Assembly: GCF_011045215.1 (NCBI RefSeq)
Contig: NZ_CP049201.1
Reading direction: 5' to 3' (one strand)
Source: Escherichia coli
GTDB lineage: Bacteria; Pseudomonadota; Gammaproteobacteria; Enterobacterales; Enterobacteriaceae
Length of the DNA stretch: 64,000 nucleotides
Shown piece by piece: positions 3,530-63,900 of this stretch. A model generated the notes under the pieces. It saw only the letters and a list, made by a program, of their open reading frames with translations, was not told the DNA's origin and searched no databases. The position numbers and the translations under genes were made by a program. Each line of letters begins with the position of its first letter. Positions within the stretch are counted from its first letter, which is position 1.

Positions 3530-4671
3530 GTCTGAATATGTTCTGGTTTTTACCGACCCATGGTGACGGGCATTATCTGGGAACGGAAGAAGGTTCACGC
3601 CCGGTTGATCACGGTTATCTGCAACAAATTGCGCAAGCGGCGGATCGTCTTGGCTATACCGGTGTGCTGATCCCAACGGGGCGCTCCTGCGAAGATGCGT
3701 GGCTGGTTGCCGCATCGATGATCCCGGTGACGCAGCGGCTGAAGTTTCTTGTCGCCCTGCGTCCCAGCGTAACCTCACCTACCGTTGCCGCCCGCCAGGC
3801 CGCCACGCTTGACCGTCTCTCAAATGGACGTGCGTTGTTTAACCTGGTCACAGGCAGCGATCCACAAGAACTGGCAGGCGACGGCGTGTTCCTTGATCAT
3901 AGTGAGCGCTACGAAGCCTCGGCGGAATTTACCCAGGTCTGGCGGCGTTTATTGCTGGGGGAAACCGTCGATTTCAACGGTAAACATATTCATGTGCGGG
4001 GAGCCAAACTGCTCTTCCCGCCGATTCAACAGCCGTATCCTCCGCTTTACTTTGGCGGATCGTCAGACGTCGCCCAGGAGCTGGCGGCAGAACAGGTTGA
4101 TCTCTACCTCACCTGGGGCGAACCGCCGGAACTGGTTAAAGAGAAAATCGAACAAGTGCGGGCGAAAGCTACCGCGCATGGACGCAAAATTCGTTTCGGC
4201 ATTCGTCTGCATGTGATTGTTCGTGAAACTAACGACGAAGCGTGGCAGGCCGCCGAGCGGTTAATCTCGCATCTTGATGATGAGACTATCGCCAAAGCAC
4301 AAGCCGCATTCGCCCGCACGGATTCCGTGGGGCAACAGCGAATGGCAGCGCTACATAACGGCAAGCGCGACAATCTGGAGATCAGCCCCAATTTATGGGC
4401 GGGCGTTGGCTTAGTGCGCGGCGGTGCCGGGACGGCGCTGGTGGGCGATGGTCCTACGGTCGCTGCGCGAATCAACGAATATGCCGCGCTTGGCATCGAC
4501 AGCTTTGTGCTTTCGGGCTATCCGCATCTGGAAGAAGCGTATCGGGTCGGCGAGTTGCTGTTCCCACATCTGGATGTCGCCATTCCGGAAATTCCCCAGC
4601 CGCAGCCGCTGAATCCGCAAGGCGAAGCGGTGGCGAATGATTTTATCCCCCGTAAAGTCGCGCAAAGCTAA
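3526..4671 (+). CDS. ssuD: FMNH2-dependent alkanesulfonate monooxygenase, 381 aa
   Basis: ORF track 381 aa; luciferase-like monooxygenase composition; ATGA overlap with ssuA stop. Confidence 0.93.
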
Positions 4672-5474: not shown

Positions 5475-6238
5475 ATACTGCTCGTCTGAACCAGGGCACA
5501 CCATTGTTGCTCAATGCAGTAAGCAAACATTACGCGGAAAATATCGTCCTGAACCACCTGGATTTACATATTCCGGCAGGTCAGTTTGTGGCGGTGGTGG
5601 GCCGCAGCGGTGGTGGCAAAAGTACCCTGCTGCGCCTGCTGGCAGGTCTGGAAACGCCAACCGCTGGCGATGTGTTAGCGGGCACCACACCGCTGGCTGA
5701 AATTCAGGAAGACACGCGAATGATGTTTCAGGATGCGCGTCTGCTACCGTGGAAATCGGTGATTGATAACGTTGGGTTAGGCCTTAAAGGTCAGTGGCGC
5801 AATGCCGCGCGTCGGGCGTTGGCTGCGGTAGGACTGGAGAATCGCGCAGGGGAATGGCCTGCCGCACTTTCAGGCGGGCAGAAACAGCGAGTGGCGCTGG
5901 CAAGAGCGTTGATTCATCGACCGGGTTTATTGTTGCTTGATGAACCGCTCGGGGCGCTGGACGCCTTAACGCGACTCGAGATGCAGGATTTGATTGTGTC
6001 ACTTTGGCAGGAGCACGGCTTTACCGTACTGTTGGTGACGCATGATGTGAGCGAAGCGGTAGCAATGGCTGACCGGGTGTTGTTAATTGAAGAGGGAAAA
6101 ATTGGTCTGGATTTGACAGTGGATATCCCTCGTCCGCGTCGATTAGGGTCGGTGCGATTAGCGGAGCTGGAAGCGGAAGTGTTGCAACGGGTAATGCAGC
6201 GAGGGCATTCTGAACAACCTATTCGGCGTCATGGTTAA
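5471..6238 (+). CDS. ssuB: Aliphatic sulfonate ABC transporter ATP-binding protein, 255 aa
   Basis: Walker [10 protein letters not shown] and ABC signature LSGGQKQR in translation; 4-bp overlap with ssuC. Confidence 0.95.
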
Positions 6239-6240
6239 TA

Positions 6241-6426
<186 letters not shown>

Positions 6427-6434
6427 TGTTTGTA

Positions 6435-48587: not shown

Positions 48588-49328
48588 ATGTCAGTTATTG
48601 GTCGCATTCACTCCTTTGAATCCTGTGGAACCGTAGACGGCCCAGGTATTCGCTTTATCACCTTTTTCCAGGGCTGCCTGATGCGCTGCCTGTATTGTCA
48701 TAACCGCGACACCTGGGACACGCATGGCGGTAAAGAAGTTACCGTTGAAGATTTGATGAAGGAAGTGGTGACCTATCGCCACTTTATGAACGCTTCCGGC
48801 GGCGGCGTTACCGCATCCGGCGGTGAAGCAATCCTGCAAGCTGAGTTTGTTCGTGACTGGTTCCGCGCCTGCAAAAAAGAAGGCATTCATACCTGTCTGG
48901 ACACCAACGGTTTTGTTCGTCGTTACGATCCGGTGATTGATGAACTGCTGGAAGTAACCGACCTGGTAATGCTCGATCTCAAACAGATGAACGACGAGAT
49001 CCACCAAAATCTGGTTGGAGTTTCCAACCACCGCACGCTGGAGTTCGCCAAATATCTGGCGAATAAAAATGTGAAGGTGTGGATCCGCTACGTTGTTGTC
49101 CCAGGCTGGTCTGACGATGACGATTCAGCGCATCGCCTCGGTGAATTTACCCGTGATATGGGTAACGTTGAGAAAATCGAACTTCTCCCCTACCACGAAC
49201 TGGGCAAACACAAATGGGTGGCGATGGGTGAAGAATACAAACTCGATGGTGTTAAACCACCGAAGAAAGAAACCATGGAACGCGTGAAAGGTATTCTTGA
49301 GCAGTACGGTCATAAGGTAATGTTCTAA
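48588..49328 (+). CDS. pflA: Pyruvate formate-lyase activating enzyme (radical SAM), 246 aa
   Basis: ORF track frame 48561..49328; start [20 protein letters not shown]; radical-SAM CxxxCxxC motif CLMRCLYC. Confidence 0.96.
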
Positions 49329-49337
49329 TTTCCCCGT

Positions 49338-49372
49338 AAAGCGGCAACTTTATTGAGTTGCCGCTTTTTTAT
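49338..49372 (+). terminator. Rho-independent terminator of pflA
   Basis: aaagcggcaactttattgagttgccgcttt hairpin followed by TTTTTT. Confidence 0.8.
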
Positions 49373-49537
49373 TCCGCGCTGCATAAATAATTCAGAGCTC
49401 TATTTCTAACGCCCTTACAGCACAGCTTCCAAATGTATTACCCAAACCGCCAGTATATGTCCTGCGGCTTGCGCGCATTTCTCGATTATGTAAAAACGGG
49501 TCAGATCTGCCAGAGTCAGCGTCACCGACCACAATAA

Positions 49538-50968
49538 TTATTTACTATTCGCTTTACGCGCCAGCAGCGGGAATATCAGTCCTAATCCTACCAGCACAAA
49601 CGGCGTTGCAACATTCAGCGCCAACTGGAAGGTCCACTCTGCAGTGAAGGCTTCCATTTTCGGGAAGATCCCCGTCAAACAGGCAAAGGCAGTAAAGGCA
49701 AAACACCAAATCCCGACGGTCATTGCCAGAGGCTTATTACGAATAAAGACATACTCTGGTGTATATTTCTGCGCCAGGCGAACGACTGCAATAAATGCAA
49801 CAAATACCCATAAATAACGCAGCGGCATCACTACCGAGTTAAGATTCAACAGCCATTTATAGAGATTGTTCATATCACCGATGCCGAGAGTCGGCAGCAT
49901 AATCAGGATCGCCACCAGCACCAGGGTCAGAAAATAGCCATTAACGGGCGTACCAGAAGCGTTGGTACGACATAAACTGGCTGGAATATATTTGCTGTCA
50001 GCATCGCCTAATAGCACTTTAAGCGGGGCATCAATCGAGAATACCAGCGCAGCTACTTGTCCCAGGGTATTCGCAATGGCGTAAATCACCATTAAAGTAT
50101 TACCCATGTTGTAATACTCGCCCAGCTTCTGAAAGGCGTAATACTGACCGTTAGTCATTAAGTCATCCGGGATATTACGCGAGTCAAACATCATCCCCAT
50201 CGCCAGTGAGCCCAGAATGGCACAAACCGCAACCATCACCGCCAGGCATAACATCCCTTTTGGAAATTCTTTTCCTGGGTTGCGCGTTTGATTAACGTAA
50301 GGAGAAATCTTCTCAGCTCCGCCAACCGCGAAAACCAGCATTGAAATAGTGGTAATGTAGGTAAAGTCGATATGAGGAATGAACGTTTCCCAGGTAATGT
50401 TTGTGGTCGCAATATGCACTTCAGTAATCGCAGGCGCGGTTACCGCCATCGCCACATACAGGAGCGACATAACAAACATCGCAATCCCTGCCACAGAACC
50501 GACGATTTTCAGCGATTTCATACCGCGTGAAGCAACCCACATAAAGAAGATAAACAGCACCAGCGTTAACCCCTGTAACGCTACGACTGAATATTCTTTG
50601 ATTAGCGAACCGTCGCCTTTCATCGCCCAACCGAGCGCAATCAGTATTGCCTGGGGTTTTTGTGCCAGATAGGGAATATGCACCACCCAGTAGGTCCACG
50701 CGGCGAGGTAAGCCAATCCGGGTCCCATCGTGTGTTTAATCCAGGTACTGACCCCGCCCTTCCCATCTTTGAAGGTCGAGCCTAACTGACCAACAATTAG
50801 TGCATAAGGTGTGAAATAGAGCGCAAAGATAAACACCCATGAAAAAACAACCACCAGCCCCTGGTTGGCATAGTTATTAACAACGTTGCCAAAACCCCAG
50901 ACAGTGATAAAAGACATCAGCGCAATGTTGTACCATCGCAGCTGTTTTTCCTGAACATTCCCAGCCAT
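49538..50968 (-). CDS. ycaM: APC-family amino acid/polyamine transporter YcaM, 476 aa (start MAGNVQEKQ)
   Basis: ORF track frame 49538..51160; polytopic membrane protein; start chosen at internal ATG by length match to recalled YcaM. Confidence 0.85.
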   Translation of the reverse strand: MAGNVQEKQLRWYNIALMSFITVWGFGNVVNNYANQGLVVVFSWVFIFALYFTPYALIVGQLGSTFKDGKGGVSTWIKHTMGPGLAYLAAWTYWVVHIPYLAQKPQAILIALGWAMKGDGSLIKEYSVVALQGLTLVLFIFFMWVASRGMKSLKIVGSVAGIAMFVMSLLYVAMAVTAPAITEVHIATTNITWETFIPHIDFTYITTISMLVFAVGGAEKISPYVNQTRNPGKEFPKGMLCLAVMVAVCAILGSLAMGMMFDSRNIPDDLMTNGQYYAFQKLGEYYNMGNTLMVIYAIANTLGQVAALVFSIDAPLKVLLGDADSKYIPASLCRTNASGTPVNGYFLTLVLVAILIMLPTLGIGDMNNLYKWLLNLNSVVMPLRYLWVFVAFIAVVRLAQKYTPEYVFIRNKPLAMTVGIWCFAFTAFACLTGIFPKMEAFTAEWTFQLALNVATPFVLVGLGLIFPLLARKANSK

Positions 50969-51177: not shown

Positions 51178-52326
51178 TTACACGTGAGCAACGGGTTTCG
51201 GAGTATGACCGGCGTTGCGAAGCAGCATCAGCAAATAGATAAACGATACGCTGGCGATCATGATAAACAATAAATTATCGGAGAAATTCTGCATTAGCAT
51301 AGCGGTAAATGACGGGCCAAGCAGACTTCCCACGGTATAGCTCAACAGTAAGGCCTGGTTCATCGCCACCAGTTGATGATGTTCAACTTTCTCGCAAGCC
51401 CAGGCCATCGCCACCGGATATAGCGTAAAGCCAGCGGCACCGAGGATGAATAACGCTGGGGCCATCGCCGCCTGGCTAAGCATCGCGATACTGCCGAGAA
51501 TGACGACAAAGACCTGAACACGCAACACCAGCAGTCGACCAAACTTATCCGCCAGACGTCCAATCGGCCATTGTCCGAGGATACCCGCACTGACCAGTAC
51601 CGCCATCCAGAAACCAATGCTGGCATTGCTCACCCCTTTGTGATTGAGGTACAGCGGCATCAGGCCATATAGAGATCCCAGCACGATTCCTGAGATAATG
51701 CAGCCATTCACGCCAAGCCGCGCCTGACGGAGTTTTAGCATTGACGTAATTGACGTCGAATCATGGTTTTCAGCCTGCTGATTCAGGACACGCGTAAACA
51801 ACAGCGGTAAGATCCCTGCCAACGTCAAACCTGTAACCCACGGCAATACGCTCATCAGCTCGGTTGAGACTTTGCTGACCAGTAACTGGCCTAAAAATGT
51901 TCCCACGTAATAAACCATCATATACGCAGCAAGCAAACGCCCACGGTTACGTGACGTCCCACTGCACATCAGCGCGCTCTCAACGACTACCCAAATCATG
52001 GCACAGCCGACGCCCGCGACAAAACGCCACGCCAACCAGCTCCAGAAACCAATCATCAGGCCAAGGCCGGCACAGCCAGCGGCAAAAATGAAGGAGGCCA
52101 GATAATAGCTGCGGTTAAAGCCAATGCGTTTAATGACATACCCTGTCAGCAATGTACCGACAAGGTTGCCGGTAAAATAGGATGAGCTGACAACGCCTAC
52201 CTGCCATGTGGACATGTGTTCCTGGGCGAGCCAAAGCGGCACGAGTGTATTTAACACCGCGATCGCCAGAGTCAACAAAAGCAGGCCAGACAGCAAAAGC
52301 ATGACAGGCCGGGTATACGTGGACAT
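51178..52326 (-). CDS. ycaD: MFS transporter YcaD, 382 aa
   Basis: ORF track 382 aa; 12-TM MFS-like hydrophobicity. Confidence 0.88.
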
Positions 52327-60981: not shown

Positions 60982-63900
60982 TTAGTCAAACGGCGGTGGG
61001 GCCAGCACTTCACGATTACCGTTGTGCCCCTGTTCGCTGACAATCCCCTGCGCTTCCATCTGTTCGATAATACGCGCTGCACGGTTATAACCAATGCGGA
61101 ACTGACGCTGTACGCCAGAAATTGACGCTTTGCGTTTTTCAGTGACAAACTGCACCGCCTGATCGAACAACGGATCCAGTTCTTCAGCGCCATCGAAACC
61201 GCCCGCGCCACCTTCGCTTTCACTGTCGGAAGTGATGCCATCAACATACTGTGGGCGACCACGCGCTTTCCAGTCCTGCACCACGGCATGAACTTCCTGA
61301 TCGCGAACAAAAGCACCATGGACACGTACCGGCAACGTGGAGTTCGGCCCAGAGTAGAGCATATCCCCCATACCCAGCAGTGATTCCGCGCCAGCCTGAT
61401 CAAGAATGGTACGTGAGTCAATCTTACTGGATACGGTAAAGGCGATACGGGTCGGAATATTCGCTTTAATCAGACCAGTAATAACATCAACCGATGGACG
61501 CTGAGTTGCCAGTACGAGGTGGATACCCGCGGCACGGGCTTTTTGCGCCAGACGTGCTATCAGCTCTTCCACTTTTTTACCTACCGTCATCATCAGGTCG
61601 GCAAATTCGTCAACCAACACCACAATGTATGGTTCTTTTTTCAGCACCGGATGCTGGGCATCCATACTGTCACCCGGCTTCCAGTACGGGTCTGGAATCG
61701 GACGCATCATGCGATCGGCTTCAGCAATTTTTTCGTTATAACCCGCCAGATTACGCACACCCAGCGCAGACATCAGTTTATACCGACGCTCCATCTCGTT
61801 AACACACCAGCGCAGCGCGTTGGCGGCATCTTTCATATCAGTAACGACTTCCGTTAACAGATGCGGAATGCCTTCATAAACCGAAAGCTCCAGCATTTTC
61901 GGGTCGATCATGATGAAACGCACATCTTCTGGCTGTGCTTTATAAAGCATGCTCAGGATCATCGCGTTCACACCGACAGATTTACCGGAACCGGTAGTCC
62001 CCGCAACCAACAAGTGCGGCATTTTCGCCAGATCGGCAACCACCGGCTCACCGGCGATATCTTTACCCAGCACCACGGTTAATGGCGACGGATTATCGCG
62101 GAATTTGGCGTTATCCAAAACTTCGCGCAGATAAACGGTTTGTCGTTTTTTATTCGGTAACTCCAGACCTACATAGGGTTTGCCAGGAATAACTTCAACG
62201 ACACGCACCGCCACCGTCGAAAGTGAACGGGCAAGGTCCCGTGACAAGTTAGAAATGCGCGCCGCTTTTACGCCCGGTGCCAGGTTCAATTCAAAGCGAG
62301 TGATAACCGGCCCCGGAGAGTAATTGACGACATCGGCTTTAATACGGAAATCAGCCAGACGCGCTTCCACCAGGCGAGCCATTTGTTCAAGCGCAAAGGT
62401 ATCTACCGGCTCCACTTCGCTCGGCGGCGGTGTCAGCAAATCCAGAGAAGGCAGCGGCGTCGTCGGTTTATGCAACGGACGGCTGTCGCCATTACGCATC
62501 AACAGCGGATGAAGCAGGGTATCCTGCTGCTGCGGTGCAACCGGTTGTTGCGGCTGCTGTACAGGTTCAACAATTGGCGTAAACAACGGTTCGTGTGGAC
62601 CATCATCCAGCAACGCTTTCATTGGCGAAAATTCAAAATCATCCAGCGAGAACGGATTCGCCCCAGCCGGTTGTTCGCCGGAATAACGTTGTTGTTGAGT
62701 TTGCGCAAACTGACGAGCCAGTTCAGCCTCTGCCGCAGCATCTGCATCTTCTGCGTTTACGGGCACATCATGTTGATACTGTTCGCCATAGCGTTGCTGC
62801 TGTGTCTGGGCGAACTGACGTGCCAGTTCATCCTGCTGCATCGCATCGATTTCATCATCGTTGTACTGATCGCCAGAATCGTACTGATTGCGCTGGGCTT
62901 CACGGGCTTTTTCTTCCGCCGCACGCTGTGAGGGCAGCTTAATACCGTAAGACGCCAGTTCACGACGAGTTGGCACGCGGATACGTTTCGGTCGTGGCAA
63001 CTGCGGGCCAATCCCCTCTTTGACCTGCGGACGCGGTCCACCGCTATTTGCCAGACTGAAGACTGGCGCGGCAACGGTTGCGGCAGCCCCCGTCGCCAGT
63101 GTCGCTTTTTTCACGCCAGATGCCAGCGGAGAAACAGCGGCAGCGGTTTCTACTGGAGGTACTGCTGCAACAGAAAGTGCTTTCAGCGAAGATTTGATCG
63201 GTTCTGGTTCTTTAACCGGTTCTGGAATCGGTTGATACCAGGCCGCAAGTTGTTCACGTTCACGGGCTCGCTTCTCTTCCACTTCTTCAAAGTAGTAAAG
63301 CGGCGGACGCGCGGGTTTTGTCTCTTCTACAACGGGTTCAGGCTCCACAACAGGCTGCTGTTCAACAGGTTGCGGCTGTTGGTACAACGGCTCCTGAGCG
63401 GCTGGCTGCTGATAAGTTTGCTCAGTCTGGTATGTAGACTGTGGAGCAAAAGTGGATTGCTGCTCTTCGGCTTGCCAGGCGTTACCTGCCACCGGTTGTT
63501 CTGGCGCAGGGGCATAATACGGCTGTTGCGCAGGCTGTTCCGGCGCAGTTGCGTAATACGGTTGCTGAACAGGTTGTTCCGCCGCAGGAGCGTAGTAAGG
63601 TTGTTGCGCAGGTTGTTCAGCTGCAGGTGCATAATACGGCTGCTGCGGCTGTACTGGTTGTTGCAGCGGCTCATTATATTGCACTGCAGGCTGCGCATAT
63701 TGTGACTGCTGTGGGTAACCTTCCGGTGCAGGAGCAATAACCGGCTCTCCCGTTTGTGGACCCGGTACAGGCTGCCAGGCTACTGTAGGTTGCGAAGGTG
63801 GAACATCAACAGAGGCAACAGGCGGCGTCTGAGTCACAGGTTCAACCGGCGCAGCCCAGCTTTGTGTCGCCGTGGTAGCAGCAGCTGCCACAGCGACAGG

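Follow-up and report, generated by a model that had tools for sequence, protein, structure and literature searches.

In the 64,000-bp stretch of Escherichia coli DNA analysed here (the window), the stop codons of the convergent genes pflA and ycaM lie 209 bp apart, and the question is what became of the genes that separate them in K-12, by which event and in which lineages. The window comes from E. coli O157:H7. O157:H7 genomes such as PV15-279 match a 1.1-kb query spanning the site at 100% identity, and the Sakai chromosome (NC_002695.2) matches a 91-bp junction query equally well (100%).

Structure of the pflA-ycaM interval

The original prediction, based on the K-12 gene order and a spacing of 210 bp between the stop codons, was that ycaN and ycaK are missing between pflA and ycaM. 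This was borne out, the MG1655 annotation giving precisely the expected order pflA-ycaK-ycaN-ycaM, with ycaK (591 bp) on the minus and ycaN (909 bp) on the plus strand in window orientation. The K-12 interval is not as short as that of the window and spans 1,680 bp from stop to stop. The segment missing relative to K-12 therefore amounts to about 1.47 kb; the initial estimate of about 2.3 kb was too large.

As had been claimed, both flanking genes are intact. The pflA gene (48588-49328, plus strand) encodes pyruvate formate-lyase 1 activating enzyme, a 246-aa protein 100% identical to K-12 PflA; its coordinates were transferred from an identical O157:H7 genome annotated in RefSeq. The ycaM gene (49538-50968, minus strand) encodes an APC-family permease of 476 aa (Pfam AA_permease_2) that is 99.8% identical to K-12 YcaM. 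It is followed by the intact MFS transporter gene ycaD (51178-52326, minus strand), the neighbor of pflA in genomes that also lack ycaM. The whole window is collinear with K-12 positions 933,302-998,737, and ycaK-ycaN is the sole difference in gene content within the 64 kb.

The remaining differences from K-12 are a non-coding REP-element cluster and the ftsK repeat region. The former, in the ssuB-pepN intergenic region (6215-6432), is an expanded cluster of REP/BIME-type palindromic repeats of 218 bp, compared to 64 bp in K-12. The repetitive linker region of ftsK (62525-63650) differs in length from K-12; it contains a 39-nt (13-codon) tandem repeat in ~3.9 copies (63494-63647) and an indel of ~120-160 nt near 62525-62562.

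The first element of the 209-bp gap is the intrinsic terminator of pflA, a plus-strand hairpin at 49338-49367 with a T-run to 49373, whose presence in the gap had already been noted. The terminator scan found a 13-bp stem with six G-C pairs, a 4-nt loop and TTTTTT directly after the stop codon, as required for a Rho-independent terminator. It is unchanged relative to K-12 and is conserved in ST131 as well.

After the terminator comes a diverged remnant of the spacer between pflA and ycaK (approximately 49374-49416), which runs to the relic of the ycaK stop codon and aligns with the spacers of K-12 and E57, E. albertii and three divergent Escherichia loci (L006, L007 and L008). In the megablast comparison, homology to K-12 stops at 49384 and restarts at 49425, leaving 40 nt (49385-49424) with no K-12 match. 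They can be aligned with the spacer between pflA and ycaK in other Escherichia genomes and, more weakly, in K-12; by these alignments they are not foreign DNA. The left and right sides of the junction were aligned locally and separately, as a global alignment with free gap extension strewed the 40 unmatched bases over spurious 4-8-nt blocks and was rejected.

Beyond the junction zone (49417-49434), where the exact breakpoint is ambiguous within ~17 nt, lies a 3' pseudogene stub of ycaN (49427-49537, plus strand; 111 bp), convergent with ycaM. It consists of 36 codons and a stop, with neither a start codon nor a helix-turn-helix domain. In tblastn it corresponds to YcaN residues 267-302 at 97% amino acid identity, and 110 of 113 nucleotides are identical to the 3' end of K-12 ycaN. 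Its single-frame translation is SFQMYYPNRQYMSCGLRAFLDYVKTGQICQSQRHRPQ, ending in GLRAFLDYVKTGQICQSQRHRPQ and the original ycaN stop codon, which abuts ycaM. Identity, syntenic position and orientation, and the ancestral stop codon adjoining ycaM identify the stub as the orthologous 3' end of the K-12 gene for the LysR-type regulator YcaN (b0900). RefSeq/PGAP likewise labels it a pseudogene ('incomplete; missing N-terminus').

The claim that the gap holds no open reading frame with LysR or flavodoxin-like features was thus correct for the flavodoxin part, while LysR-derived codons are present. No ORF of at least 50 aa occurs in 49329-49537. The HTH_1 domain (PF00126), residues 7-63 of K-12 YcaN, is absent from the stub. 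The LysR_substrate domain (PF03466), residues 91-290 in K-12, is almost entirely gone and is not detected in the 36-aa stub, which gave no Pfam match even at E<=1. YcaK, the flavodoxin-like NAD(P)H oxidoreductase encoded by b0901 in K-12, has no tblastn match in the O157 locus, nor does the locus contain a Flavodoxin_2 (PF02525) coding sequence. At most a stop-codon relic (TTAC/TTAT) remains of ycaK, which is otherwise lost entirely.

We conclude, with a probability of about 0.9, that the segment 49329-49537 is the scar of an old deletion of ycaK and most of ycaN from a K-12-like arrangement. Such a deletion would have removed all of ycaK and the first ~260-266 codons of ycaN. The scar is real, and public annotation already flags the stub as a pseudogene; in kind it is an ordinary deletion scar associated with lineages. 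A 'clean deletion', one of the two options of the original prediction, describes it in part. It is a deletion, but it has left the 111-bp stub and ~40 bp of diverged spacer, and probably a secondary 10-nt loss.

Two readings of the breakpoint, which differ by ~17 nt, were obtained on the K-12 locus (L001). In the first, the break lies at position 2524 in what remains of the ycaK 3' end, and ycaN resumes at 4001, the two sides overlapping imperfectly (7/10). The second has CTTAT|AG (ycaK stop codon, ~2519-2521) fused to AGCACAG at codon 260 of ycaN (3985), with 10 nt lost afterwards in a secondary step; this reading has exact matches and also accounts for the E. albertii sequence, which retains CGTCC and lacks a different 8 nt. 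Under one ancient deletion followed by erosion, the intermediate junction would have read CTTAT joined to AGCACAGAGCGTCCAGGCTTCC.

Short direct repeats, proposed beforehand as the mark of a deletion mechanism, were not found. The O157 junction shows no IS homology and no direct repeat of at least 8 nt, only the 2-nt overlap AG or the imperfect 7/10 overlap, either of which would be too short to drive the deletion. The event would thus have proceeded by illegitimate (microhomology-poor) recombination or replication slippage rather than by an IS or site-specific recombination, and the small secondary loss of ~10 nt in the stub would represent pseudogene erosion.

Three alleles among E. coli genomes

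A survey of 5,426 complete E. coli genomes, the kind of survey that had been proposed, found both presence and absence of ycaN-ycaK. The ycaK-ycaN segment is present in 3,341 genomes (nearly full length in 3,318), among them K-12, ATCC 11303, B7A and DEC9B. The O157-type junction occurs in 1,023 genomes (~19%), and the 1.1-kb query spanning it is covered in one piece in 1,022. The named strains with this scar include O157:H7, O145 RM12275-C1, APEC O78:H4 and O166:H15. The alternative offered at the outset, a lineage-specific difference, therefore holds insofar as the deletion is associated with lineages; it is not specific to O157.

A third allele, found in 1,047 of the 5,426 genomes, lacks ycaK, the ycaN stub and ycaM, so that pflA stands beside ycaD. 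It is represented by O25b:H4-ST131 and O2:H6, and apparently by one strain named O18, which matched pflA only. The pflA terminator is joined here to the ycaD terminator via an 8-nt filler, GTGCACAG (L003:6430-6525). This is another deletion at the same site; it begins immediately after the pflA terminator and also takes the stub and ycaM, a gene otherwise conserved between ycaD and pflA in the Enterobacteriaceae examined. Judged by serotype names, phylogroups A, B1 and C appear to be intact, E, D, F and G to carry the stub, and B2 to have the triple loss. The three alleles might be used as a simple marker of lineage.

A P2-like prophage (integrase, Cox, replication endonuclease) lies between pflB and pflA in the ST131 isolate NZ_OX637964.1 (L003:1-5600). 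In this genome pflA is annotated at 798 bp instead of 741 bp, with the prophage immediately upstream, and the 5' flank of pflA seems to be a phage attachment site.

The same genes are also inactivated by insertion sequences in individual strains. CUPS04 carries an IS1-associated deletion from ycaK into ycaM (L048:4026-5418), EC96 (H71) has two IS1B copies in ycaN, and an IS3-family element interrupts ycaN in a further locus (L053:5542-6776). These losses resemble that of O157 in disabling ycaK and/or ycaN, but differ from it in having IS1 or IS3-family elements at their breakpoints, whereas the O157 junction has none. In strain TB06052, an IS200C element is located between the pflA terminator and the ycaN stub (L004:2939-3397).

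The 2001 comparisons of the EDL933 and Sakai genomes reportedly described K-12-specific segments absent from O157:H7 as 'K-islands'. The two genes ycaK and ycaN likewise form a short K-12 segment (~1.5 kb) that the O157:H7 backbone lacks between intact, collinear flanks. However, its loss is not O157-specific, being found in ~19% of complete E. coli genomes and with related scars in other Escherichia species.

As a consequence of the deletion, O157:H7 has neither YcaN nor YcaK. For K-12, an effect of YcaN on the neighboring ycaC, ycaD and focA and on growth with formate has been reported (PMC9068703). Since YcaN, which is poorly characterized, and the divergently transcribed YcaK are lacking in O157:H7 and in about one-fifth of sequenced E. 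coli, the K-12 results on ycaC, ycaD and focA expression and on formate use are not transferable to these strains. A literature search for b0900/b0901 together with O157 returned irrelevant papers only, in which the b-numbers were reference labels.

Scars in other Escherichia and the age of the deleted allele

Stubs of the ycaN 3' end without ycaK were found in all four other Escherichia that have the pflA-ycaM interval, namely the E. albertii type strain (L009) and the divergent L006, L007 and L008. Their junctions vary. E. albertii has the O157-type structure, in L006 position ~2519 is joined to ~3957, and in L007 and L008 ~2530 is joined to ~4011. As L007 and L008 retain ycaK-proximal bases that are missing in L006 and O157, at least two independent large deletions are needed. 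Judged by these sequences, the loss of ycaK-ycaN is recurrent and has produced two or more distinct junctions. In the conserved part of the L007 stub, about six of seven changed codons are synonymous in our own reading of the alignments, which suggests that the L007 lineage may have kept an intact ycaN until fairly recently.

Several candidates for additional Escherichia alleles were discarded. The apparently divergent YcaN proteins P0016, P0111, P0107 and P0102, considered as intact alleles of other Escherichia species, come from error-ridden metagenome or long-read assemblies of E. coli or represent IS3-disrupted E. coli alleles. Strain E69, deposited as E. coli (CP089930.1; L023:8432-15428), gives no information on the junction, with unrelated DNA 3' of ycaM and no pflA within 7 kb. 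Its ycaM and ycaD have only ~88-90% nucleotide identity with those of E. coli and its terminator hairpin is different; E69 is, by this measure, a divergent Escherichia lineage.

The related scars in E. albertii mark the event as old. The age of the deleted allele was assessed on ~50 alignable bases of the spacer relic in a few genomes. On this scale, the O157-type relic (O157, AR_0077) shares only 59-67% identity with the intact E. coli allele (K-12, E57) and 77-79% with E. albertii, with which it has an 8-nt gap in common. The intact-allele spacer (K-12, E57) is closer to those of L007 and L008 (78-83%). The flanking pflA and ycaM genes are 98.3-98.7% identical between O157 and K-12 (1.3-1.7% difference), and the deep divergence is limited to positions ~49381-49441. 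As the relic is far more diverged than its flanks (1-2%), the deleted allele is ancient, and both alleles are much older than the surrounding E. coli backbone. The deleted allele would either predate the diversification of E. coli or have moved between Escherichia lineages, and recombination would since have homogenized the flanks and spared the ~60-nt core around the junction. The scars of E. coli and E. albertii may go back to one event or to parallel events.

A more elaborate reading, which we regard as rather unlikely, is that the intact and O157-type alleles represent two haplotypes of deep divergence, which either have existed side by side in Escherichia from a time before the diversification of E. 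coli or have been exchanged between species. The pfl locus would then carry a trans-specific presence/absence polymorphism, perhaps kept by niche-dependent selection on the regulation of formate/pyruvate metabolism, and ycaM would have kept the stub as its 3' end. Overall, the locus matters little; the one mildly surprising point is how old the allele is, together with its likeness across species to E. albertii.

The stub itself might have a role, whether in forming the 3' UTR or the terminator of ycaM or in giving rise to a small RNA (antisense or regulatory). Such a role, to which we give little credence, could explain why every Escherichia deletion ends 100-157 nt short of ycaM. In its favor, the endpoints of the three junction types cluster, the right ones within 55 nt (ycaN codons 251-269) and the left ones within ~12 nt, and a ~64-nt block is ~92% conserved between E. 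coli and E. albertii, compared with only 85% nucleotide identity for ycaM. However, former coding constraint on an intact YcaN protein would explain a conserved block with a variable tail behind it, and the mostly synonymous changes in L007 (~6/7 codons) suggest recent independent loss rather than RNA selection. Folding of the minus strand is more favorable than that of shuffled sequence (z = -4.1), but this score owes much to the pflA terminator hairpin, and the stub contains no consensus minus-strand terminator and matches no Rfam family. The pair ycaM-ycaN is listed among the convergent overlapping transcript pairs of K-12 (PMC12288877); on the other side, ST131-type genomes lose the stub along with ycaM. 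Considering the scar as a whole, no Rfam match above chance was obtained, and its single promoter-like match is no more than shuffled sequence yields. The scar thus appears to be without detectable function.

The locus outside Escherichia

To extend the comparison, 41 loci from species-representative genomes were collected using YcaM as an anchor and scanned with the K-12 proteins. Citrobacter, Salmonella arizonae and diarizonae, Kluyvera, Yokenella and Pluralibacter have the order ycaD-ycaM-pflA with no trace of ycaN or ycaK. Their ycaM-pflA spacer consists of a single 40-70-nt hairpin or holds unrelated cargo of ~1-6 kb. Spacer inserts were seen in several Citrobacter, Kluyvera and Salmonella arizonae loci, of ~5-6 kb in L011, L013, L033 and L042 and of ~0.7-1 kb in L015, L016, L021 and L034. 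Insertions appear to recur at the convergent ycaM-pflA junction in different genera.

The gene pair is nevertheless not confined to Escherichia, as YcaN homologs retrieved by a homolog search are patchy across Enterobacterales. Pseudocitrobacter corydidari has homologs of ycaK and ycaN (67% and 79% amino acid identity) between pflA and ycaD, with no ycaM (L049:3217-6930), and a short enterobacterial contig carries pflA-ycaK-ycaN-ycaM intact at ~77% nucleotide identity to K-12. The P. corydidari locus also contains an extra LysR gene and a gene of the choloylglycine hydrolase family (CBAH). In K-12, the G+C content of ycaK-ycaN is 41-46%, compared to ~50% in the flanks.

These observations bear on the opposite polarity, by which O157 would keep the ancestral state and K-12 would have gained ycaK-ycaN by insertion, with nothing deleted in the O157 lineage. 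The hairpin-only spacers of Citrobacter, S. arizonae/diarizonae, Kluyvera and Yokenella, the low G+C content of the pair and its patchy occurrence are all compatible with such a gain. However, O157 keeps an in-frame, startless 3' end of ycaN and a relic of the pflA-ycaK spacer, and such remnants cannot predate their source genes; E. albertii and L006-L008 all have ycaN stubs as well. With stubs in all these Escherichia spacers, an insertion is plausible only for the ancestor of Escherichia and not for the difference between K-12 and O157, for which we consider it very improbable. That the absence is an artefact of misassembly or of a mistaken K-12 order can practically be dismissed, since the K-12 annotation places both genes exactly as stated beforehand and 1,023 independent complete genomes, Sakai among them, show an identical or nearly identical junction.

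We therefore retain a deletion in O157 as the preferred reading; the term 'deletion' holds only relative to an Escherichia ancestor that had ycaK-ycaN, the pair being absent without trace from Citrobacter, Salmonella, Kluyvera and Yokenella. The pair is a patchy accessory module at the 3' flank of pflA that has been repeatedly lost, and the locus offers a small worked example of the recurrent loss of such a two-gene module.

Two further observations concern ycaM, the anchor of this comparison. YcaM homologs at 62-66% amino acid identity, unusually high for such a distance, occur in Firmicutes (L035-L041; Clostridium, Pelosinus, Anaerospora and Sporomusaceae), which suggests that the permease may have been transferred between phyla. 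A 396-bp contig labelled Corallococcus aberystwythensis (L046), of very low coverage, is 98-99% identical to E. coli ycaM; almost certainly, this myxobacterial assembly is contaminated with E. coli DNA.
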